64,000 nt of DNA from Raja brachyura (taxonomy: Eukaryota): the NCBI GenBank assembly GCA_963514005.1, contig OY740795.1, forward strand, positions 40,114,001-40,178,000. The letters are read 5' to 3'. Of this stretch, positions 1 through 64,000 are shown one piece after another (position 1 is the first letter of the stretch; the number at the start of each line of letters is the position of its first letter). The translations under genes were made by a program, and so were the position numbers. The notes under the pieces were generated by a model. It was not told the DNA's origin and ran no database searches. It saw only the letters and a list, made by a program, of their open reading frames with translations.

Positions 1-727
1 CTAGTGTTTGATATAAGAATTCCCAATTAACCCTATCAAAAGCCTTTTCCGCATCTAGGCTTATCAGGACAGCACGTGTACTTGCCTTTTGAATCTTGTG
101 TATTATATGTAGGGTTCTTCTAATGCTGTCCTGTGTTTGTCTGCTTATTATAAAACCAGTCTGGTCTTCATCAATTAAATCTGGCATGAACGTTTCAAAT
201 TGTTTGGAGATAATTGAAGAATATAATTTATAGTCCACATTCAGAATTGATATCGGTTTGTAGTTGGTACAATTTTCCTTGTCTTTGTTCTCTTTGGGGA
301 TTAATGTTATAATTGCCTCCTTCCATGACGGGGGTGTCTTGCCTTCTTTGATAATCCAGTTAAAGGTTCTCAGAAGAAGTGGGTTCAGCTCATTCCAAAA
401 TATTTTATACCACTCTATAGGGAAACCGTCGCTGCCTGGGGCCTTGTTTGTTTTCATCCTACCGATTGTCTTCTCTATCTCCTCCAGTGATATTTCTGCT
501 GTGATTATTTTATTTTGTGTCTCTCCAATACAGGGCAGATCTATTATACTTAAAAAAGTCCTCATTGATTCCCCATCTACTGTAGAGGTTTGTGTATATA
601 ATTCTTTATAATATTCCTGGAAGATATATTCTATTTATTTTGAATTGCTCTTCAAATTCTGTGTACAGGGGTCCTTCATTTTGTGTATGGTGTTGTCAGC
701 CTGTTGTTTGCGTAGCCTTCAGGCAAG
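1..727 (-). mobile_element. L1/Tx1-type LINE (L1a) ORF2, post-endonuclease linker into RT; continues beyond window start
   Basis: Minus strand reads IL A*RLRKQQADNT..., [42 protein letters not shown] (L1 RT motifs); joins the 6056-8890 half in frame once DIRS-A is removed. Confidence 0.9.
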
Positions 728-738
728 TATTTCGTTTC

Positions 739-788
739 GGAGTCACGTGAGTGACTTTGTGAAGCACCCAGCACGCATGCGCGACATA
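739..788 (+). promoter_or_regulatory. Left terminus with E-box palindrome (TCACGTGA) and NRF1-like GCATGCGC; putative internal promoter/recombinase-binding region
   Basis: Both motifs recur at the left end of DIRS-B (26411-26461); function is inferred. Confidence 0.4.
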
Positions 789-927
789 TCGTCGCAACGC
801 ATTGCAGTCGACGGCTGGAGGAGGAGCGCGGCTCAAAACCGGCCCTTCATAAGGGCCGCTCAGGTAAGTGTAACTAACCTTGAGTTGGTTGGTTTCTGTT
901 GAGAGAGTGTTTTCTTTCAACAGGAAC

Positions 928-2666
928 ATGGACAGGAAGAACAAGGGCTGTAGGACGTCCGCACGGAGTCGCCGGCCACCCATCCCGGAGCCCTCATCAA
1001 CGGCTACACCTGCGAGTCAGGCCGGGAAAAAGGTGAGGAAGTCGGGGAGCCCTGTCGCCACAGGACCCGACCCGCCGATACACCGGAGCTCCAGCGAGGA
1101 TTCCACGGAGCAGGATTTCGGTGTGCCACCGGAGCAGGTTGATCCTGACTCCGTATTGCTGTCGCCAACGGGCTCGTTGGTCGACCAGGGCAAACAGGGT
1201 TCACGTGCTGCCGCACGGCCCTTCTCCCTGAGCCCTCGGAGGAGAGGGAGGGATAGAGCCCGTCAACCTAGCCCTTCACGGGCAAAGGTATCGCCTGCCG
1301 CTAGATTGCGGACTGGTGATTTGGCGGGACTCAAGTCCACTGGGAGACCTGTGTCGACTCACCAACCACCAAGACAAGGAAGAGTCATTCGGGTGGAGTC
1401 CCGCCACAGTCGCCGAGTCCCCCGTGGATGGGAGGACGGGACCGTACGCCGTCTAGGCCCAGGATTAGGGCAGTCGGCAAGCCCGCGCGGATGTCGGGTC
1501 ACCACGCCGAGGCGTTGGGTGCCGACCTCTCACCGCGTTTGCCCTCCGAGGCAGCGGGATCGAGCTCCGCCAAAAGGAGGCGTTTGAGCGGATCCGCGCG
1601 GGAATTGCTCAGCTTCGCTGCGGCGGCTGGTAGCGACAGTTTCCGGCACCGAGATTACCTCGACGAGGTGCGGGCCGATGAACGGAGCCTCAGCAGTTCC
1701 GTTGAACATGAGGACTCCGACCGCCCGGGTTCGAAGGGCGAAGGGCGTATTGACAGAATGGAGCGGATGTTGGAACTTCTCCTGCAACAAAATCAGAGGC
1801 GGGAGACATCTAGTTCCAGAGGGCACATGGAGTTATCCCCATCGTCAGCGGGAAGCCTGAGGCAGCCGGAGGATGAGGACATCCTGGTTCATGCACCATC
1901 TACATCGGAGGCCCCTCAGGAGGAGCTCCTGGATGTCGCAACCAAATTTGCACTGTCCGAGTCATCAGGACTACCCCTCAACCCCAAACTGGCTGCCACC
2001 GTGGACTTCCTGATGAACCATCAGCTTCAGGAAGAGGTCCTGTCGGAGGCCATGAATAGGCACAAAGCCCCAGCGAATTGAAACTCCCTCAACGTGCCCA
2101 TTGTCAATACGCCGATTTGGGGCAATATCAGCCCAGGGATCAGAACCCAGGAGATGAAGCTCCAGCGGATCCTGAAGCTGCTTACTGCTGGGATTTCCGC
2201 GTTTGTATGGTCGGTGGACGGGGAGGATCTGAACACCGAGCAGGAGGATGCTCTGGCACAGTATGAGATCAACGCCTTTCGGAAGAGCATTATTAAACCC
2301 ACTCTAAACCCAAAATTTGCGGGGTTATGCAAAGAACCTCCGACGCCACCCAGACAGTTGTTCGGGGAAGACCTCCCGAAGCGGGTCAAGGAGCTGGATG
2401 ACCACGCTAAGACGGTGGGACTCATGCGGTCACATATCTCGACCAGGCAGCCGGCCAGGAAAGTGCCATTTTTCAGGCCACGAGGCCCTACCGTTAGACC
2501 AGCGAGGACCTACGCTCCAGCTCCGCCTCAATTTCAGCTGCCTCAACAACCTAGGCCTTTTTTAGGGCTAGGCCCCCAGCGGCCACCATGGAAGATGCGG
2601 ACGCTGCATCGTCAGCTCAACCCAGCACCTCCACGTCCCGCCAAACATATCAGGGACCGCCGGTAA
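928..2666 (+). pseudogene. DIRS gag-like ORF, disrupted by one frameshift (between ~1320 and 1587) and an in-frame TGA at 2079-2081
   Basis: ORFs 880-1587, 1428-2081, 2094-2666; the last two share a frame across PAN*NSLNVPIVNTPIW; downstream IKPTLNPKF...LFGEDL resembles DIRS ORF1. Confidence 0.75.
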
Positions 2667-5572
2667 CCATGGAGGTAAGGCGGTCTGGATTTCATGCACC
2701 TGCATGCTTAACTTCACATGTTGGTGGGAGACTACGGTTCTTTATGGAGGCATGGGGAACCATCACTTCTGATGAGTTTATCTTACAAAGTATTCAAGGC
2801 CATGAGATTGAATTCATCAATGGTAAAATCCCTCCATCCCAGCATATGCCAGATCGGAAATTTACACTGGCCAGCAATGAAATGGCAGTAGGCTATGCTG
2901 AAATCTTAAGGCTACAAGAAAAAGGCGTGATAGAAAGAACTATACACGAACCAATTGAATTTGTATCCAACATATTCACAAAAACCAAGAAGGATGAAGG
3001 ATGTCGGGTTATTATTGATCTGACCCATTTGAATACCTTTGTAAAATATACCCATTTCAAAATGGACACGTTCGAAACAGCCAAGTTGTTGATTTCTGAG
3101 GGCTGCTTTATGGCATGCATTGATTTAAAAGATGCATACTATTCAGTATCCATTCAGAAACACCACAGGAAGTTCTTGAAATTTACCTGGATGGATCAGC
3201 TCTGGCAATACAGGGCTTTGCCAAATGGGCTTACCACAGCCCCTAGATTATTTACTAAATTGCTCAAACCAATACTGGCTACACTAAGGAGACAAAATCA
3301 TATAGTGATGGCCTATCTGGATGATATCCTAATTATTGGGAACACCCTGGAATCAGCGGAACTGGCAGTTTCAGCCACCGTGGAAATTTTTCAGAAAATG
3401 GGGTTCATTATCCATCCAGATAAATCAAAGTTCTGCCCTTCACAGGTCATGGATTATCTGGGGTTCACGGTGGATTCCAATCGCTTGAAAGCCACCATAC
3501 CAACTAACAAAGTTGGGGATGTCACCCAAGTATGCAAGGATCTAGTCTGGGCCAGTATACCATCAATTAGACAAACTGCTAAGGTGATTGGCAAGATCGT
3601 AGCACTTTTTCCAGCTGCCCAATACGGACCTTTGCATTATCAAAATTTGCAGAGAGCCAAGATCTCAGCGTTAAAACTGAACGCTGGACATTTCGATAGA
3701 CCAATGCAGCTGCCTCTAAAGGCAAAGATTGAGTTACAAGGGTGGATTGACAATATTTGTGACTCATTTAAACTCATCATTTTGCCCAATCCGATGGTAT
3801 ACTTACAAACAGACGCAAGCTCCCATGGCTGGGGAGCTACGGACAACTACTCTAGTTGTGGAGGCAGATGGGACACCCTTGAATCTACCCTGTTGTTGTC
3901 ACAAGGGATAAACTATTTGGAGATGCTAGGAGCATTTCACGGACTTCGAGCTTATTGGTCTAACCTTACTGATGCTCATGTCTGTCTCCAAATAGATAAT
4001 ACCACTGCGGTGGCACATCTAAATCATATGGGCGGTACCCGGTCAGTTTCATGTGATGAATTGGCAAATACAATTTGGCTCTGGTGTATTCGACGGAATA
4101 TTTGGATTTCAGCTACCTATTTACCAGGTAAGCTCAATACAGTGGCAGACACCAGGTCATGCAAATTCAATGACAACATCGAGTGGATGTTGAATCCCCA
4201 AATATTCGCCAAAATTACGGCCAAATTTGGTAAACCGGATATCGACCTTTTTGCGTCACGGTTGAACCATCAGGTACCAACATATGTTTCGTGGGAACCA
4301 GATCCTGGGGCAATGGCGATGGATGCGTTCTCGCTAGACTGGGGGAAATGGTTTTTCTATGCATTTCCTCCATTTTGCCTCATCAGTCGGGTATTGCGGA
4401 AAATCCAGACAGATACTGCTAAGGGCATTCTTATCATACCCGACTGGCCTACACAGCCATGGTATCCGGTGGTCCTTGATATGATCAGTCAACCTTGGGT
4501 CCTCTTAGAGGGTTGCCCACAATTGGTAACAAACCCTGTCTCGGGAACCACATCCCTGCCACAGTCATCTAAACTTATTGGCTTGCAGGTTCTGAACAGG
4601 CCATTACTGCGGTATGGCCTATCATCTAGAACCATGGATACCATTGGAGCATCATGCTGGGAGTCCACCAGGCGGCAATATCTCACACATATCCGGAAAT
4701 GGGAAACCTACTGCGGCCGCTCCCACATTGCATACGACTCCGTTACCATCACCGACGTACTGGAATTCCTGGCTGGGTTGCATCACGATGAACATCTCAG
4801 CTACAGTGCCATCAACAGCGCCAGGAGTGCGCTGTCATTCTACCTCAATATCGAGGTAGGATCCAACAGGCTGGTGTCCAGACTCATGCGGGGAATATTC
4901 AATTCCAATCCGCCCAGACCTCGTTATAACATCACCTGGGATATTGGGAAGGTATTAACCCTGCTCAGGACGTGGTCGCCCGTGGAGGGGCTTGAGCTGG
5001 ACAAACTCACCCTGAAGCTGGTGATGTTACTGGCACTGACTTCAGCGCAGAGGGTACAGACACTCCACACGGTCAGGATCGACAGGATGATCTCTACCCC
5101 TGGTGAAGTAATCTTCTTCATAGATGAATTACTCAAGCAGCATAGGCCTGGGTTCACAGGGCTGCAGCTGAAGTTTCCGGCATACCCCGCTGATGCAAGG
5201 CTATGTTTAGCCGCCCATATCCGCCACTATGTCAAAGTGATGAGAATATTGAGGAGAATGGAGAAATACTTGCTCATCAGCCACAAGAAACCTCACCATA
5301 GAGTGACGGTGCAGACGATCTCCAGGTGGCTCAGGATCGTCTTGGGTGAGGCAGGTATTGACACTAATGTCTTTAAATCCCATTCCACCAGGGCTGCATC
5401 GACGTCGGCGGCAAGGGTCATGGAGGTGCCCATGGACCATATTCTTGCCACAGCAGGATGGGCGAACGAAGCCACCTTCCAGCGGTTTTACAATAAGCCT
5501 GTTGCCGCTCCTGCATTGTTCGCGGAGGCCGTGCTGGATGCAGGTCAAGAACGTGCAGATGTCCCCCCGTGA
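2588..5572 (+). CDS. DIRS polyprotein: reverse transcriptase, RNase H, N6-adenine methyltransferase-like domain and tyrosine recombinase in one frame (likely start ATG 2669)
   Basis: RT: IDLKDAY, LPNGL, YLDD; RNase H: TDAS, INYLE, DNTTAV, NTVAD; MT-like: DIDLFAS, FYAFPPF; YR: SAQRV, LLKQ, HSTR, AGW, FQRFY. Confidence 0.93.
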   Translation: MEDADAASSAQPSTSTSRQTYQGPPVTMEVRRSGFHAPACLTSHVGGRLRFFMEAWGTITSDEFILQSIQGHEIEFINGKIPPSQHMPDRKFTLASNEMAVGYAEILRLQEKGVIERTIHEPIEFVSNIFTKTKKDEGCRVIIDLTHLNTFVKYTHFKMDTFETAKLLISEGCFMACIDLKDAYYSVSIQKHHRKFLKFTWMDQLWQYRALPNGLTTAPRLFTKLLKPILATLRRQNHIVMAYLDDILIIGNTLESAELAVSATVEIFQKMGFIIHPDKSKFCPSQVMDYLGFTVDSNRLKATIPTNKVGDVTQVCKDLVWASIPSIRQTAKVIGKIVALFPAAQYGPLHYQNLQRAKISALKLNAGHFDRPMQLPLKAKIELQGWIDNICDSFKLIILPNPMVYLQTDASSHGWGATDNYSSCGGRWDTLESTLLLSQGINYLEMLGAFHGLRAYWSNLTDAHVCLQIDNTTAVAHLNHMGGTRSVSCDELANTIWLWCIRRNIWISATYLPGKLNTVADTRSCKFNDNIEWMLNPQIFAKITAKFGKPDIDLFASRLNHQVPTYVSWEPDPGAMAMDAFSLDWGKWFFYAFPPFCLISRVLRKIQTDTAKGILIIPDWPTQPWYPVVLDMISQPWVLLEGCPQLVTNPVSGTTSLPQSSKLIGLQVLNRPLLRYGLSSRTMDTIGASCWESTRRQYLTHIRKWETYCGRSHIAYDSVTITDVLEFLAGLHHDEHLSYSAINSARSALSFYLNIEVGSNRLVSRLMRGIFNSNPPRPRYNITWDIGKVLTLLRTWSPVEGLELDKLTLKLVMLLALTSAQRVQTLHTVRIDRMISTPGEVIFFIDELLKQHRPGFTGLQLKFPAYPADARLCLAAHIRHYVKVMRILRRMEKYLLISHKKPHHRVTVQTISRWLRIVLGEAGIDTNVFKSHSTRAASTSAARVMEVPMDHILATAGWANEATFQRFYNKPVAAPALFAEAVLDAGQERADVPP

Positions 5573-5717
5573 GGGTTTTTTTCTTTGTTGTTAATAAATA
5601 TTGTTATTATTTTTCAGTACAAGCAGTCTGGAAAGTTGATTACTCCTATCCATCCTTATAAGTTGTGTGTGACAGCATGGACGTGGTCCAGGGCATGGAA
5701 TCACAGAGCTTTGAAGT

Positions 5718-5829
5718 CTTCACGAAGTCACTCACGTGACTCCGAAATGAAATAGTAAGATTAAACGAGAACTTACCAGTTCGAAGGTTGATCTTTATTT
5801 TATGAGGAGTTGCGATGAGGGATTTCGTG
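5718..5829 (+). repeat. Internal complementary region (ICR) of DIRS-A
   Basis: 5718-5754 is the reverse complement of left end 728-764 (2 mismatches in 37); 5750-5829 is the exact reverse complement of right end 5976-6055 (80/80); the halves overlap at AAATA. Confidence 0.97.
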
Positions 5830-6055
5830 CCCTCCGCTCCCAACCCTCGATCATAAATCAACTGGTAATTAGAGTCTCTTCAATCTTACTATAACAAGTC
5901 ATTTCTCTGTTGTTGGTCCTGTGATTCCACACCGCTACTTTGAAGTATGTCGCGCATGCATGCTGGCGGGTTCTTCACGAAATCCCTCATCGCAACTCCT
6001 CATAAAATAAAGATCAACCTTCGAACTGGTAAGTTCTCGTTTAATCTTACTATTT

Positions 6056-8890
6056 TAGTGGATTTAGGGCCAAGCTCATAATGTGCCTGTTTTACAAATC
6101 TTGCTTTTTTCTCCACCTCTTGACCCAATGTTCCATCCATTTGTCCCCTCAAATCTTCTATTTGCTTATAAGTTCTCTGGTCCTTATTATTTTTGTACTT
6201 CTGTTCTAAATCCTTCAGGTCTGATATCAACTTATTATATGTTTTCATTCTGGCATTTTTAATATGTGATGCCCTGGCTATTAACCTACCTCGTATTACA
6301 GCCTTCAATGAGTCCCATAGTATGGATGGGTCCACTTCCCCATTGTCATTCTCCTCTAGATAAGTTTTGATTTCCAATTTAATATCATTAACAGTTGTTT
6401 TATCATTCAGTATTCCAACATTTAATCGCCACACTGTGTTTTTCCTTTACTGTCCATTTGAATTTTTAAGTATATGGCATTACGTTCTGATACATCTGCC
6501 ACACCAATTCTGCGATCCATTACCCTATAACAGTCTTCTTTCTGCATTAAGAAATAGTCTATTCTGGAGTAAACTGAGTGCGGTATTGAGTAATGTGTAT
6601 AGTCTCTTTCTAGAGGGTGAAAATTCCTCCAGACATCAAGAAAACCAAATTCTTCACAGGTAGTGTTTAGTAGTTTTGTTAACTGGTTCTTATTCTTCAT
6701 TTTACTTGTCGTATCAAGCCTATGATTCAGTACAACATTCAGATCCCCCCCACATATACAAATTCCTTCTGCTTCCATTGCAATAATATCAAATAGGGAT
6801 TTGAAAAAATGTTCATCACTACCTGGGGGAGCATAGATATTCACCAGTGTCAGGATATTATTATCAACTTTGCCCTTAAACTATGATATAACTCCCTTCT
6901 TTGTCTTTTATTTCTTTAAACATTTTGAATTTAACTGAGTTTGATATCAAGATTGCCGCTCTTCTTTTATGACTACAAGTAATTGAGCTATAATATGTGT
7001 TTTTATATCCAAATCTTTTCAGCTTCTCATGCTCTTGTCGCGTTAATGGGTTTCTTGTAAGTAAATAATATGCATCTTCACTTTTTTCAATTTGGTCATG
7101 ACTTTAGCCCTCTTAATTGGGTTACCCAAACCATTAACATTTAGAGACATCAACTTAAGTCCTTGACATTGCATCATTACACTTAGTGTGATTGATTTCA
7201 CCGTATCCCCTCAACTCAACACCCAAACCATTCTGAACAACAAACAAAAACATATGAACAAACAAAGGTGTTTTACCTGACAAAACAAAACAAAACATCA
7301 AATCATATATGGACTCCCAAAAAAGGGTATTCTCTCTCCTCCATAGATCCAGAATCCCTTTGTAAATTGACGGGGGAAGCGTAAAACACTAAGAAAGGGC
7401 CCTCTCCTAAATAAGGGGGGGTAACCCTCTACAGCTCTAATATTTCGCTGATCTCCCTAACAGTCGGATTTATCTAATACAGAAAGTTGTATTAAATCAA
7501 CATTAATTACACTCACATGAGGTCTGTGATGCTTGGTGATATTTTTAGAACCAGGCTTATAAACAGATTTGTCTATGAATATACATATCTATACACATAT
7601 TTGTAAACTTAGGATTCCATAAGAACTCAGCATTCTAACATATTGTGGCGGAAGCCACTGTGTTACCCATGTCTGTGCGTACCTTCATAATCATATCTCA
7701 GGTCAAGCATGAGTCTTTTGTTGTAATTCTTGAAGGCGCTCCAATGCCCGTCTGATTGTCTCTGATTCTCCGTGTCTCTCGACGAGCTGCCACCGCGCCG
7801 TTCGGTGGAGTTGTTTATGCAGTGGCGGCATGTCCGTGATTCCCGCAGCTCTTCCACTTTATAGCCTCTCTGTTGTAGCTCTTGCATGACTTCCCTTGCG
7901 TTGTTGTAGGTTTGGTGTCCGCGTTCCCAGTAAATACGTATCTTGGTAAATGGTGTCTGATAGCGGATTCCTTCCTCTGTTAGGAAGCTTTTAACATGTT
8001 TGTATGCCTTATGTTGTTGTACTACAGCGGTAGTATAGTCGTGGTCAAAAGACAGCATTCGTTCTCCAAGTTGGATCTTCTTTTGCCATGCCTGTTTGAG
8101 AACCATCTCTTTAACTTTAAATTGGAGAAAGTGGACAATGATGGATCTCGGGGGGGAGCTGAGGCTTGGTTTCTGTGCCAGGGATCTGTGTGCTCGTTGA
8201 ATCTGTAAATCTGTCATTTCAGGGATTGACATTTCACTTCTGAGAAGATTCTCCACAAACTGAAGTACTGAGCTTCCTTCCGCACCCTCCGGCACACCGT
8301 ATATCCGCAGATTATTTCTTCGGGATCTGAACTCCAGATCATTCAATTTGTCGACAAGTAACTTCTGGTCTTTCATCGTTTCTTGGAGTGTAGTGTTTGC
8401 AGCGACACTCCATGTTTCCAGCTCCTCTATTCGGGTGGGGGCTTCTTCCGTTGTTTTTTTGGTCTTTTATTACTTGCGCATTCGCTGCCATCTGAAGATT
8501 CATTTCATGTTTAAGTTCAGCCAGCTCTTCTCTCATATCCTGCTTGATATCGTCTTTGAATGATGTGAAGTCCGCTTTTAATTCTCTTCTCAAGTTGCTG
8601 ATTTGTGTACTTATACTTTTTAATCCCTCATGGAGGGCCTCTGTTACATCGTCTCCACCAGCCTGTTTGTTTTTGTCTTCGTCTGTGTCGCTTCGAGCCT
8701 GACCTTCTGTTTCTTGCTTTTCTAGCTTCTTTTTTTGCAACTTTCTGCTCTTTGTTTTGACTCCCCCACTCATACTGAACTCATAAAAACTTAAATACTC
8801 GCTTACTTTGAATTTAGGGGAGGTTTATTTATCTGACTGTACGGAGTTCTCTGTCTAATCAGCCACCATGCTCTGCCGCCTACCGGAAGT
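6056..8890 (-). mobile_element. L1a 5' half: 5' UTR, ORF1 (8773 to ~7700, frameshifted) and ORF2 endonuclease (from ~7177)
   Basis: ORF1 DLEFRSRRNNLRIYGVPEG, IQRAHR, FDHDYT; APE endonuclease NIYAP, GGDLN, YSRIDYF, WRLN, LWDSLKAVIRG; 5' end ACTTCCGGT. Confidence 0.92.
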
Positions 8891-34524: not shown

Positions 34525-37349
34525 AAGCCAATAGAACATACTTAAGCACATATGTGCCGGCAGTGAATAGCGCTGACAGGGGGATGTGAGAGCCAGCAAC
34601 TGAATCTGTTATTCAGGTAGGCCTATTCAACAGGGAAGAAAGCCTGGCAGATGAATCAATTAGGCCAATGGCGGGCAAAAGTCATCATTTCAGAACACAC
34701 CCCAGGCGCTCATCGGCAGTAAGCGGTTCACTGGAGCTGGGGGCAGCATGATAGCTCAGAAATTCCATGCACCTTACCAATCCTACTCAACAAAATGGGT
34801 CTAGCACTTCCAAAATATGGATAGTGCACTGTTCACAAGTTGTAATATTTACATTTGTTTTGTACAACACACAAAGGGTAAAAAGATCTGGTCGAGGCAC
34901 AGGCTGAGCATTCCAAGCAAGTTTGGATTATGGCCAGGGTTTTTTTTAAATATTAAGGTTTGGAAATTGGGCAAAAGTTCTCATGCAAACCACACATGGA
35001 ATAAGGCAGGAATGGCATGTTATTACTGTAATACAATACAAGGGATGTAATTAAAAAAATTAAAAAAATTAAAAATTAAAAAAAATAAGTCAATAGAACA
35101 TACTTAAGCACATATGTGCCGGCAGTGAATATGAACTTTCCGAATATGAAAACTTATTTTCCTGACTAACAACAGATTCATAAGGGTCAGAGATCCATGC
35201 TATGCAAATCCCATTACAGAGGTTATCAAAGACAATATAACTGTATTATAACAGTAAAGCTTTGGGGTATGGGATAAACTGTTTGTTGGTCATTGGGATT
35301 TACCTTTAATTATTATTAGCCTTGACTCCGTCTTGTGGCAAGAGATTGGAGTTATAGCAATCTATTTTAAAACTGAGTTTTATTTTCGTCAAGAGTAGTT
35401 GGCAATCTAGCAGCTGTGTTTCAGCCGAGCAAATCAAGGATCTGATATCGTGCAAGTAGCAATTAAACCATTGTTAACAACCTTATGCTATTGTCAGCTG
35501 AAGCTGCCTCAGTCACAATGATGACGTAACAGTATTTAGCATTGCTGAACATGACAATAACTAATTGAACTTGAACTTGAAACTCACTACAGTAGTCTGA
35601 TCGGTTGAATTCAGTTATGACAAACTGATGCTAGGACTCTAAGATGAGAAATTCCAAATACCATCACCGACTTCAAGGTATTTGAGATTGCATGAGTTAC
35701 CAATTCTTGAATTGTTTGTATCAACTAACTATATACACTAGATGCACCCCATGGGTAAGGGGCTATTGAGCGAATATACATATTCTACATGCTCAAATTC
35801 AAGTTGCTACTCTACGATGGTGACACATTAGTCACATGGTAATCAAGTAACAGTATCCTGTAATAATTACCTAAATCTCCTTTGCCACTGGTGTATCATC
35901 CAGTTCAGATCGATAACACAGAATAAGTGTTGGATTTCAAAGTATGATGAAAGTATGGTTCAATACTACATCGAATATCGACATGTTGGTGCATGTTTAT
36001 TCACTAATTGCAAAAATATGTGGCACAACAGTGCGGAGAAATACATTCTTCAATAGGAGGAATGGTCTTTTATGTCTTCCTCATTTTTGCCTCATTAGCC
36101 GGGTCTTAAAACAGTCAGCAAGACCTCGCTTGGGTTCGTACGGTCGGACTGGCCAAGCGTCCTTGTTGCCTGCTTCATCAGGCATTATGGCACAACGGTA
36201 TACGGTTGTTCCAAAAAACAAGAACTTGCTGTTTCAAGCTGTGGTTCAGGAGACCGGCCTTTGCACAGTAAAACAATTATTGACTTACACATTTTGAATG
36301 GATTGACTTATGCCTCAGGTTGTCACATCAAGACATGAAGGTGCTCACTGCAGTGTGCAGGGATAGCACCCAAAAAAGCAGTGCATTCCTATTGAGGGGA
36401 TCAGAAGTGTTTTTGTTAAATGTTAATGTTACATTTAATACGGTACAGATTACTGACATGTTCCAGTTCATTTTAAGTGGTATTTGACAATAATTCAGTT
36501 ATAGAGACACTACAGCAGCAATATAAGGGAACTACGCTGTCGGGTTCAACCCTTGTTAAAAGATCTTGACACAAGTTTTCCCACTACAAGATTATGCAGT
36601 TGGTTATTGAAAATGTGTGAACATTACTTCACCAAGGGGTTCCAGCTACATCCTTAGTTATGACACTTATATCAGCAAAATTACGGCAAACAATGCAAAC
36701 GCTGTGGCTGGATAGGATGGAATTGGCTGCAGGTGCCATTACATTTACATTCTGGTCTACACAAGCAGAGTAGACTAGGGGTGGCATGATTTAAGATCAT
36801 TTTCGGATACCCCACGGCCTCACGTCTATGTTACCATGCCCACCAGAATCCTAAGAAGTATGGAATCAGCATTGTTTATTAGTCAACAAACAACTACACA
36901 AAGGAAGGTCGGTTCAGACTATTTCAAGGTGGCTGCAGCAGGTTCTGGGTTATACAGGTATTAACACTGACGATTGTATATCTCTTTCCACCAGGTCAGC
37001 ATCAACGTCAGCGTATCATTTAGATATTGTGTTTACATCTCATTCCACTAGGGCAGCAGCTACTTCGGCGGCCAAGGCGAGGGACGTGCCCGTCGACCAT
37101 ATTTTGGCGGCCGCCGGATGGGCAAATGAGCTGATGTTTCAGAATTTCTATCAATGCTATTTTAAGTTATGTTTAAAGTACCCTGGGATAGAGGGGTACT
37201 GTTGTTTGTTTATATTTTTTAAATAAACTTTATTACTGCATTAAATGCAATGTTACTACTAATGCATTAATTTCTCATTTGAGTCAATCCATGCAGTGGG
37301 ATGCCGAGATTTGTAATCTGCGGCATGAAATCACAAAGCTTTGAACTCC

Positions 37350-37455
37350 TCATGGAATCACTCACGTGACTCCGAAGTAAAATAGTAAGTTTAAATGGGA
37401 ACTTACCAGTTTGAAGTTTGATCTTGATTTTATGAGGAGTTACGTTGGTGATTAC
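37350..37455 (+). repeat. ICR of DIRS-B
   Basis: 37350-37382 is the exact reverse complement of 26403-26435; 37381-37455 matches the reverse complement of 37606-37680 at 73/75. Confidence 0.95.
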
Positions 37456-38822
37456 GAGCCCGCTATGCCCAACCCTCTCTCATAAAGGATCATCTGGTAG
37501 TTCCCGAGTCACGCATCTTACTATGTCACTTCGGTGTTGTTATTTGTGATTTCATACCACTGCTTTGAAGATTGGTGTGCAGGTGGCCTGGAGGGTCTTC
37601 TTCATGTAATCACCAACGTAACTCCTCATAAAATCAAGATCAAACTTCAAACTGGTAAGTTCTCATTTAATCTTACTATTCTTTGAAATTTTCACTGGCA
37701 CTGTTCTAAGGAAGAGCTTGAGTATTATTACCGATGACTTGCTTTCTATTGACAACTTGAGAAAGATTTTCACCTGTTGGTTTCAGAGGAAATTCATCCC
37801 AAATGATGCACTGTGATAGATATTCAACCTAACATTTATTAATTATTTGTGTCCTCATTTCTGTGAATGAGACTGTTTTGTTTGAATACCTATGAATTGT
37901 TTAAGCTCACTGTGTGTGTCCATCAATAATGTACTTCAAATAGAAAGTTTTTAATTAAGCATATGAAGAATTGATTTAATTTGAATAATAAATGCCAAAT
38001 ATTAACTATTTCAAATGATGAATTAACATTTCCATTCCATGGAGCTGTGTCATATATTCATTGAGATGATTTAATTAAGCTGAAAAACATATATAGAATA
38101 ATACATCAGCGTGCCTGTATCTCTCTCCTTCATTTATCTTACAATTAAATGCTCCCCCTTTATTATTATACCCTTTGTTCTCTTCTGCCAATTAGCTTTC
38201 GTTCCTCCTTGCTTGCTGAATTTTGTAATGTTCATGAATTGCTTTCTCAGGTTTAACACGTTCTTTTGTTTTACTTGCATTTAGTAAAGTATTTTTGTTG
38301 GCATTATCCATTTTATGATCCATTCCTTTGTGCCACGAACAGTGGAATAAGATTACAGTGGCTTGACCTGAAGATGCATCCTTTCTTGAAATGCAGGCAC
38401 CTTCCCTGAAGAAATTTCTGTAAATATGCATGTAAATTACATCTCTGAAGCAGCTGTCTGTTACTTTGACAGTATGTGTGCAAGGATTTTTCTAAAGCCT
38501 TTTATATGCCCTAGAGTTCAAAAGGCAAGGGTCAGTTGCATCAACTGTCAAGATGTAAAGTGGAGCTTGTCAGCACACGCAGAGTTACAAATTGACACTG
38601 TGTACATTTCCTTCCATCTGCCACTTGGCTCCTCTGCACAAAACATGGTTTGCATTCCTTTCTCTTTTGCTTTCTCTTATTTTGACAATAAATTCCGCTT
38701 TGTTAACAATCTCTTTGAGTACTTCCATGACATGTCAACGTGCCAGTTAGGTAAAGTGACTTCTTTCAGAATTTGGATATGTGCTACTGGTGTACTGATA
38801 TAGTTTGAGATGCTCAAAGATA

Positions 38823-57356: not shown

Positions 57357-57440
57357 GGCTTGCCCCCAAATTAAATCAGCTCACTCACACTAAAAAAATC
57401 TTAATTCTTTAAACTAACCTTTACTAAAAAGCACTGTATC

Positions 57441-57635
57441 CTTTGCTCACTGAACCCTTTTGCTCACTGAACCCTTTTGCTCACTGACCCTTTTGCTCAC
57501 TGAACCCTTTTGCTCACTGAACCCTTTTGCTCACTGAACCCTTTTGCTCACTGACCCTTTTGCTCACTGAACCCTTTTGCTCACTGAACCCTTTAGCTCA
57601 CTGAACCCTTTAGCTCACTGAACTCTTTAGCTCAC
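57441..57635. repeat. 17-bp tandem repeat x12 (TTTTGCTCACTGAACCC) in the CR1 5' UTR
   Basis: GCTCAC at 57445, 57462, 57479, 57495, 57512, 57529, 57546, 57562, 57579, 57596, 57613, 57630. Confidence 0.95.
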
Positions 57636-57929
57636 CTTACCTTTAATGCAAACCAGGGGTTGCACCCAATCAGCTGCTTCCACCAATCAGCGGCTTCCAC
57701 CAGAACACTTGTGTAGAACGTTACAGGTTTGGGTACTCCTCCTCTTGCTCCAACGGCTCCTGGGCCTCTGTTAAAACAAAGCCCCGCGCTCGATTTTTAA
57801 ACTCACCGCCCGGAGACCATTCACTCACCATTCATTCACCAATGGGTGAGTAAACTCACTGAATGATGGGGCACAAGCAGATGAGTTTCAAATTACCTAC
57901 ACATTGCAATGATACTGACCAAGAATGTT

Positions 57930-62810: not shown

Positions 62811-63075
62811 CCACCCAAAGGCTATGAGCCACTCAACAACTGCAGATGTATAGAATAGGATCTTGTACAGAAATTCTTGATCCAGGGAGTAGCGTGTGCA
62901 GCGGGAATGTCCCAAGCTGCCGCGTGGGCCCGATTCACCCGCCAAACAACCATGCCACCGATGACCAGAACGATGATCGAAGACCGGAATAGGCCCCGGT
63001 AGGCCTAACACCCCACAGGCCTCCCAGAGAACTGCGGTGAAGCTGGACGGCAAGGCTTGGCTGGGCTGAAGGAGC

Positions 63076-63772
63076 CTCAGTGGCGACGGGAGCCTCGGTG
63101 GTGGCAGTGGGAGCCTCAGCGGCGGCAGCGGGAGACTCAGCGGCGGCAGCGGGAGACTCGGCGGCAGCAGCGGGACACTCGGAGGTGGCAGTGGCAGATG
63201 CGGCGGTGGCAGTGGGAGATGCGGCGGTGGCCGTGGCAGATGCGGCGGTGGCAGTGGGAGATGCGGCGGTGGCAACGGGAGCCTCGGCAGTGGCAGCGGG
63301 AGATGCGGCGGTGGCAACGGGAGCCTCGGCAGTGGCAGCGGGAGATGCGGTGGTGGCAGTGGGAGCCTCGGCGGTGGCAACGGGATCCTCAGCGGTGGCA
63401 GTGGGAGCTTCGGCGGCGGCAGCGGAGGACTCGGCGGTGGCAGCGGGAGACTCGGCGGTGGCAGCGGGAGACTCGGCGGTGGCAGTGGGAGATGCGGCGA
63501 TGGCAGTGGGAGATGCGGCGGTGGCAGTGGGAGCCTCAGCGGTGGCAGTGGGAGATGCAGCGGTGGCAGTGGGAGATGCGGCGGTGGCAGTGGGAGATGC
63601 GGCGGTGGCAGTGGGAGCCTCAGCGGTGGCAGTGGGAGATGCAGCGGTGGCAGTGGGAGATGCGGCGGTGGCAGTGGGAGATGCGGCGGTGGCAGTGGGA
63701 GCTTCGGCGGCGGCAGCGGGAGACTCGGCAGTGGCAGCGGGAGATGCGGTGGTGGCAGTAGGAGTCTCGGCA
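63076..63772. repeat. GC-rich 21-bp minisatellite, about 33 units (GCGGCGGTGGCAGTGGGAGAT and variants)
   Basis: Direct observation; the heptad repeats in four overlapping ORFs follow from the 21-bp period. Confidence 0.95.
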
Positions 63773-64000
63773 GCAATGTGGGCCTCGTGGTCTATGAGCG
63801 TGATGGGGGGGAGGGGAAGACCATGGGGACCCGACATGGGGGGACCACCGTGAGGGATGGTGGGAGAACAAAGTGGGTCCCGGTGTTGTGGTCCCGGTGT
63901 TGGGCGCGTGGGGGGGGGGGGGGGCACTCTAGTTTAGAATCCTCTTCCCAGGGGATAAGCCTGCCTGCCTTCGTTTGTTTGTTTGTTCATTTGTTCTGGT

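Follow-up and report, generated by a model that had tools for sequence, protein, structure and literature searches.

An enclosing stem and twin edge motifs in the 3' domain of DIRS1-type retrotransposons

A DIRS1-type element and its 3' domain

The window, that is, the whole stretch of 64,000 nucleotides analysed from contig OY740795.1 of Raja brachyura (GCA_963514005.1, positions 40,114,001 to 40,178,000), harbours a DIRS1-type retrotransposon, element A, at 729-6054 (all features described here are on the plus strand). Its ATT...ATT ends were set from the sequence and from an empty-site joint (727 to 6051, with five ambiguous letters) found in 4/4 sequencing runs, and the insertion is therefore missing from other individuals or related organisms. 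Element A displays the features of DIRS1-like elements, namely (i) ATT (NTT) ends without a long target duplication, (ii) ITRs plus an ICR complementary to both ends, with an overlap at a 3-bp junction and (iii) coding regions for reverse transcriptase (RT), RNase H, methyltransferase (MT) and tyrosine recombinase (YR). These coding regions lie in a single open frame (2555-5572) recognised by Pfam (RVT_1, Phage_int_SAM_4, Phage_integrase and a weak Dam match) and by patterns, RNase H being identified by its motif pattern. RT-RNase H-MT and YR thus share one 1005-aa frame; DIRS elements usually have separate or overlapping frames for the two. Upstream of 2555, in the place of a Gag-like ORF1, the frames are broken into three pieces without Pfam match. 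The flanks (1-728 and 6055-7100) appear LINE-like on the minus strand, and the window also contains a broken element of the LINE type (30190-34160), which has an endonuclease domain and whose 3' part is duplicated, as well as tandem arrays of 21-nt and 17-nt units (62977-63885 and 57425-57659).

At the left of element A, the outer end (lE, 729-764) is the complement of ICR-L, with two differences in this copy, and the left ITR spans 758-788. Across families, the inner edge of this ITR reads TCAGT, TCATT, TCATA or similar, which resembles an initiator consensus, and the RNA would therefore be likely to retain only 2-4 nt of the ITR. In the R. brachyura genome the left end agrees with ICR-L and with the right ITR within each subfamily, which is what renewed copying in every cycle would produce. 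Two further motifs, GTCACGTGA in the left outer end (741-749) and a GCGCATGCGC-like motif in both ITRs (773-784 and 5950-5959; present in 16/24 families with ≤2 mismatches), are presumably E-box-like and NRF1-like, respectively, and together likely constitute a promoter, judging by their sequence. The 5' leader contains a candidate intron-like stretch (864-923, CAG/GTAAGT ... TTTCAACAG/, with an ATG at 928), whose donor is kept among subfamilies of the same genome; the stretch is not evident in the metagenome families. Since it has no second copy, the replicated RNA would need to retain it. Back-splicing from a terminal donor to the leader acceptor was considered as a replicative form and rejected, the leader (790-923) having no second copy from which it could be rebuilt.

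The 3' domain of element A opens with the 5' arm of a closing stem, P1 (5696-5706), and a CTTTGAA motif lying 3' of it (motif 1, 5709-5715). ICR-L (5717-5753) starts 8 nt after the motif start with TCTTCACGAA and ends at the AAT junction (5751-5753), from which ICR-R (5751-5829), containing the conserved core GAACTTACC, extends to a conserved C-rich tract (5830-5848) that closes an apical hairpin with 5830-5834. An anti-ICR patchwork (5843-5892), a degenerate complement of ICR-R, precedes the 3' arm of P1 (5919-5929; both arms are supported by an own-arm pairing test, exact match and pair probability) and a second CTTTGAA motif, again 3' of the arm (motif 2, 5938-5944). The right ITR (5946-5981), with its inner edge 8 nt after the start of motif 2, ends in a microhomology (5972-5981), the TCTTCACGAA of the ICR-L start standing also at this outer edge. 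The right end complementary to ICR-R (5976-6054) includes a candidate splice-donor-like CTG/GTAAGT (6026-6034), 26 nt from the element end. An earlier note on this DNA had described the duplex between ICR-R and the 3' end, and it is perfect (80/80 bp, 5750-5829/5976-6055). ICR-R of A has three possible partners: ICR-L (to form a self-rod), the anti-ICR and the right end. The second element of the window, DIRS-B, reduced to a decayed 3' remnant without an intact ORF among those listed, has the closing stem that the note had claimed (arms 37325-37337 and 37543-37555, motifs 1 and 2 at 37339 and 37563), and its 37381-37680 region comprises ICR-R (37381-37455), an anti-ICR and a right end (37606-37680) that is 97% complementary.

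The same layout – P1 5' arm, CTTTRAA, ICR-L, AAT, ICR-R, C-rich tract, spacer, P1 3' arm, CTTTRAA, right ITR and right end – is common to 24 DIRS1 families, that is, A and B from the window and 22 from metagenome contigs (34-49% YR identity to A). These 22 are the non-redundant loci used among 80 that a recombinase alignment retrieved, the others being near-duplicates, loci too short to reach the 3' arm or the right end, or loci with rearranged downstream DNA (L103, L109, L117 and L155). Six of the 22 were located by the core motif itself, and 15 of the 16 found by the inverted repeat alone carry the core. In the R. brachyura genome, 40 stretches around the first listed end-motif matches on one contig yielded 35 copies with ICR and right end, and the conservation set, to which further loci were added, comprised 47 sequences reduced to 17 representatives below 93% identity. 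The best 40 copies of A in this genome are 98-100% identical and the best 40 of B, with B itself apart, 93-95% identical, while an 18-nt end motif has 42,667 genome matches (versus 0 for its control), which corresponds to roughly 20,000 elements. A head-to-tail array with alternating 6.1- and 4.6-kb spacing lies at G000:C1:725050-763017. Two pattern searches were discarded: a class II core pattern with 11 matches versus 10 for the control in the same genome (those viewed were main-family variants), and a scan of viral contigs whose 8 matches, with no DIRS-type domain in the folds inspected, were taken as chance.

The closing stem P1 and the rods it encloses

The earlier note had proposed that the DNA downstream of the ICR folds back on it as a nested rod of six stems, covarying between A and B. 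All six stems are exact Watson-Crick (GGAG/CTCC falling at 5806-5809/5837-5840), and both regions fold better than shuffled sequences (5680-5945 in A, z = -4.62, 0/200 shuffles as good; 37300-37600 in B, z = -4.30, 0/100). In A, four of the stems are predicted on the plus strand, with mean pair probabilities of 0.994 for P1, 0.944 for the 5752/5892 stem, 0.876 for the 5773/5868 stem and 0.987 for the apical GAGGG/CCCTC. The two inner stems, TTTATGA/TCATAAA (0.001) and GGAG/CTCC (0.002), are predicted to be absent because another register is better by 10 kcal/mol (-71.8 for the full six-stem structure versus -81.6 for the MFE). As for compensatory changes between A and B, there are two such pairs, both in P1, which is thin covariation, as expected from a comparison in which 303/426 aligned columns are identical.

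With the P1 arms of the 24 families anchored on the two CTTTRAA motifs (motif 2 is degenerate and was placed by hand in 3/24 families), the own-arm duplex averages -19.8 kcal/mol, a value reached by 0/100,000 permutations, versus -7.7 with the arms of other families, and the own 3' arm is the best partner of the 5' arm (rank 1) in 20/24 families, with arms that are only ~32% identical between families. When ranked among 300 random windows drawn from its own locus, the true partner falls in the top 5% in 22/24 families and in the top 1% in 19; it fails this control in L170 and L173. These are fewer than 24 independent cases, since related families share arms. P1 is a covarying helix adjoining the proposed acceptor sites, as would be asked of a template-switch pairing element. 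G·U pairs are rare in it whichever strand is read (11 among the 348 pairs of the plus strand, 20 on the minus strand), and internal mismatches occur in several families, which argues that P1 is not simply recopied like the ends; taken together, the scarcity of G·U and the mismatches indicate a helix kept by selection and workable on either strand. Two loci outside the 24, L109 and L117, have the ICR of a P1 family and no matching 3' arm in the fold, and may be chimeric contigs or counter-examples to P1.

The twin motifs form a dyad with P1, one beside each helix arm, and keep a nearly constant distance to the segments that match the left end. Nine metagenome families have both ends. Counted from motif 1, the ICR-L edge falls at +7 to +9 in all of them (9/9), and counted from motif 2, the ITR inner edge does so in 8/9; among 31 copies of the R. 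brachyura genome, the former is at +7/+8 in 25 and the latter at +8/+9 in 24. Both edges thus show the telomerase-like arrangement of a helix 5' of the template with a fixed linker, here of +7 to +9 nt. The orientation of the motifs is such that they mark the start of a copied segment on minus cDNA and the end of a copied segment on plus RNA. In addition, the right ITR outer edge and the ICR-L start have at least 7 nt in common in 16 of the 23 families whose sequence covers both.

Inside P1, the anti-ICR rod of the note (ICR-R paired with the spacer) is not common to all families. Ten of the 24 have it, with z between -5.1 and -9.7, and 14 do not (z -1.9 to +1.6). Its register shifts between families, its longest contiguous run is 10-23 bp (versus 80 bp for the perfect end duplex) and neither strand is consistently favoured (plus in 6 families, minus in 4); where present, the own spacer ranks first for pairing in 7/10 families. 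RNAalifold, the check that the note had put forward, returned from 13 anti-ICR-bearing sequences a self-rod between ICR-L and ICR-R (37 pairs, 11 with compensatory changes) instead of the anti-ICR rod, and recovered neither the latter nor P1, because the arms of both do not align. This self-rod is found in all 24 families, more stable on the plus strand in 24/24 (G·U/A·C counts of 83/0 on plus and 11/22 on minus), with a plus-minus gap of -12.8 kcal/mol of which, according to shuffles, composition accounts for -5.3; two of its G·U positions recur in many families, which are related, so that the counts are not independent. On plus RNA, the two rods of A differ by less than 3 kcal/mol (-81.6 versus -78.8); on minus, the anti-ICR rod is by far the more stable (-96.1 versus -71.3). 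Self-rods are weaker in anti-ICR families (p = 1.3e-4), and these families are not one clade (p-AU 0.0017, in a tree with two long branches from which 3/34 rows with short hits were left out and in which L103 was coded anti-ICR-absent without determination). The anti-ICR rod is thus an optional substitute, the shared outcome being an ICR-R held in an imperfect rod inside P1.

Locus L165 (4100-4532) is a natural test case: it has no conserved core or donor-like motif, but its end match still measures 80 bp, its P1 is perfect over 17 bp and it has an anti-ICR of its own, although it groups among families without anti-ICR. Elsewhere, perfect inverted duplications of 75 and 177 bp in or around the ICR (L132:1150-1296 and L107:5763-6206) may be assembly artefacts or snap-back products.

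One condition under which the note would have given up its fold was neutral decay of a right-end duplicate, with stems no better conserved than loops. In the 17 representatives, paired columns of the 3' arm region (5849-5929) are 0.83 conserved versus 0.64 for unpaired columns and 0.65 for upstream DNA (p ~1e-5), a supportive but not clean comparison since A alone served to define the stems and indels depress the loops, and we know of no other job for this region. Likewise, the anti-ICR is kept in elements at 41-49% YR identity. The fold-back region is therefore real and under selection. Conserved in it are the closing stem P1, the CTTTRAA motif beside each arm and the self-rod, which the note had not described.

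That ICR might switch between the local fold and the 80-bp end duplex, as also suggested by the note, is plausible, the nested fold and the duplex being mutually incompatible and the duplex helix crossing that of P1. With the right end included, the duplex state is far more stable than the P1 state, both on RNA (-178 versus -100 kcal/mol) and on minus DNA (-113 versus -58). Since the duplex wins at equilibrium by ~78 kcal/mol, the local rod and P1 must be kinetic, protein-held or pseudoknotted, and a kinetic role would fit the fact that the rod is complete before the right end is transcribed.

The right end carries a candidate signal of its own. A donor-like G/GTAAG lies 24-26 nt from the end in 23/24 families (e.g. 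L118, L130 and L140), 15 of these 23 having the CAG/GTAAGT version, which places a candidate 5' splice site, matching the donor consensus, at a fixed right-end position. Its ICR copy reads ACTTACC(TG), which resembles the 5' end of U1 snRNA, and the motif also forms half of a terminal hairpin. A poly(A) hexamer is found between the YR end and P1 in 19/24 families, at variable positions in AT-rich tracts and counted without a control.

Possible roles in rebuilding the left end

Directly observed are the closing stem, the twin motifs with 7-9 nt between each of them and the segment matching the left end, and the energies of the folds. To account for these, we favour, by analogy with the paired elements of hepadnaviruses and with about an even chance of being right, a conserved cis-domain in which P1 and the twin motifs would be a two-sided docking platform on single-stranded minus cDNA, positioning reverse transcriptase for two template jumps that would rebuild the left end. 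In this scenario, (i) transcription would begin within the left ITR, 2-4 nt from its inner edge, to give an RNA that, judging from this edge, lacks ~60 nt of the left end, (ii) while the right end is still to be transcribed, an imperfect rod would occupy ICR-R of the RNA and so delay the 80-bp duplex, this rod being the self-rod with its many G·U pairs or, in families with a weak self-rod, the anti-ICR rod, (iii) the self-rod would weaken in cDNA (G·U becoming A·C) while the Watson-Crick P1 persists, (iv) the cDNA 3' end would land beside motif 2 and copy the right ITR, (v) it would stall at the ICR-R/right-end duplex and jump, via the short shared microhomology, to a site beside motif 1, at the opposite end of P1, and (vi) it would copy ICR-L to the AAT junction, closing a circle for the recombinase. 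The anti-ICR rod would then be an optional keeper that prevents ICR-R from pairing with the end until P1 has formed.

A reading on cDNA is favoured because of the RNase H motifs present in the element, which argue for a DNA template, the Watson-Crick nature of P1 and the Dictyostelium data, in which deletion of the ICR leaves first-strand cDNA intact, the ICR acting afterwards on single-stranded cDNA (PMC7192593; here and below, this paper, PMC3266345, PMC8812780 and PMC4712671 are cited from excerpts). The same deletion disfavours the priming role that the earlier note had entertained. For DIRS elements the ICR has been shown to be essential, no primer is known and the steps are those of a 1985 model (PMC7192593). 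Plain self-priming from the ICR for the full minus strand was rejected in any case, as everything 3' of the ICR would be omitted. The docking platform does not explain the terminal donor-like motif, and the geometry of the twin motifs fits a stop signal on RNA equally well.

The domain might instead act on RNA only, as a shield or packaging signal without part in template jumps, P1 and the rods blocking the 80-bp dsRNA (to avoid RNAi or editing, or to free the 3' end) or binding Gag. The G·U bias of the self-rod to the plus strand, the short anti-ICR runs (10-23 bp, as opposed to an 80-bp perfect duplex), the way the two rods compensate each other and the control of DIRS-1 by RNAi (PMC7192593) all point in this direction, which we nevertheless consider rather unlikely as a complete account, because it leaves unexplained both why the same motif stands 7-9 nt from the two copied-segment edges and why P1 avoids G·U, and because the 80-bp duplex wins at equilibrium. 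A shielding or packaging role is likely true as part of the docking-platform explanation.

The donor-like motif and the stop-like geometry would both be accommodated by a telomerase-like boundary on RNA. An RNA 3' end cut at the donor-like site would prime on ICR-R, RT would copy ICR-L, stop ~8 nt before P1, jump to the right ITR, copy it and stop again 8 nt before the other P1 end, so that the left end would be appended to the RNA 3' end in a circularly permuted genome. The order of 5' helix, short linker and template-3' is that of the vertebrate telomerase P1b boundary (PMC4712671), here twice, both stops are strictly required by the scheme and G/GTAAG is at 24-26 nt from the end in 23/24 families. 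Against this, RNase H, whose motifs are present, would destroy the copied RNA ICR and ITR, there is no branch point after the donor inside the element, L165 has kept its 80-bp end match without a donor-like motif, and first-strand cDNA in Dictyostelium is independent of the ICR and without left LTR (PMC7192593), which makes this boundary unlikely. The bolder version, in which a spliceosome- or U1-defined 3' end at CAG/GTAAGT primes on the ICR with P1 as a double template boundary, is doubtful, although it would, if true, identify the primer that DIRS elements have been lacking and constitute a new retroelement replication route, with an RNA-DNA genome in circularly permuted form.

Folded single-stranded DNA is a recombination substrate in other systems, such as integron attC and CTX phage sites, and the recombinase could similarly bind P1 and the two-fold symmetric motifs to integrate a folded cDNA. 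This would suit the dyad arrangement of motif and helix, the Watson-Crick P1 and the ability of single-stranded cDNA to complete transposition (PMC7192593), but insertions end at ATT, with the AAT junction inside the ICR, ~45 nt from P1 and not within it, which renders this improbable. We find it very improbable that the patches are mere leftovers of right-end template-switch duplications in neutral decay: the anti-ICR does resemble a deleted right-end copy, with a register that differs among families and an absence in 14/24, and may well have originated by such a duplication, but stems are better conserved than loops, the anti-ICR persists at 41-49% YR identity and P1, which copies no terminal sequence and covaries, largely refutes a neutral by-product reading for itself. 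Finally, some retroelements carry ribozymes, but a self-cleaving one is scarcely credible here, since Rfam 15 gave one chance match in 5500-6100 (E 0.52), its covariance models none at gathering score in 16 loci, and the residues that do not vary are the ones with a mirror copy at the end of the element.

Relation to known systems and significance

The ITR/ICR/right-extension layout is that of known DIRS1-like ICRs (Cappello model; Piednoel 2011, PMC3266345; Malicki 2020, PMC7192593). Aplysia elements have the ATT ends and AAT junction of element A (Table 3 of PMC3266345), and in the same paper the partial ICR-L/ICR-R complementarity, that is, the outer stem of the self-rod, is the 'divergent ITR', and the shared microhomology the conserved boundary sequence. 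Dictyostelium DIRS-1, whose ICR data are used above, is a distant element with long ITRs. The 3'-terminal hairpin proposed as its primer (Poulter and Goodwin, cited in PMC7192593) is a 14-nt, terminal structure, whereas the fold-back is ~230 nt and internal; the ICR-R core being self-complementary, the right end of our elements forms a terminal hairpin too. As far as they are covered by these excerpts, published descriptions of the DIRS1 ICR contain no closing stem, twin edge motif, anti-ICR rod, strand bias or terminal donor-like site, and the words 'hairpin', 'stem' and 'secondary structure' have zero occurrences in the main texts of PMC3266345, PMC9210276 and PMC2685390. The P1/twin-motif domain was not found in the DIRS literature searched, in part excerpts, and an earlier mention in classic DIRS papers is possible.

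Outside DIRS, hepadnaviruses (phi-epsilon and minus-DNA paired elements, PMC8812780) are alike in that intramolecular pairing unites donor and acceptor for jumps with few-nt homology, but they are protein-primed and use direct repeats, whereas in DIRS one local helix would serve two acceptors. Vertebrate telomerase P1b (PMC4712671) is similar in that the helix encloses the core and is separated from a template edge by a single-stranded linker of fixed length; it stops RT on RNA, whereas P1 of DIRS would, on the docking-platform reading, mark a start site on DNA, at both helix ends.

In conclusion, P1, the twin motifs and the self-rod amount to a real, selected cis-domain of a known retrotransposon class that was apparently not described before. 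P1, the motif spacing and the strand-biased self-rod are short, exact and mutable targets that separate the cDNA-jump model from the RNA-boundary model, while the covarying stem and the core motif provide a means to annotate DIRS ends, in a family that, with its roughly 20,000 elements, makes up a large part of this genome.
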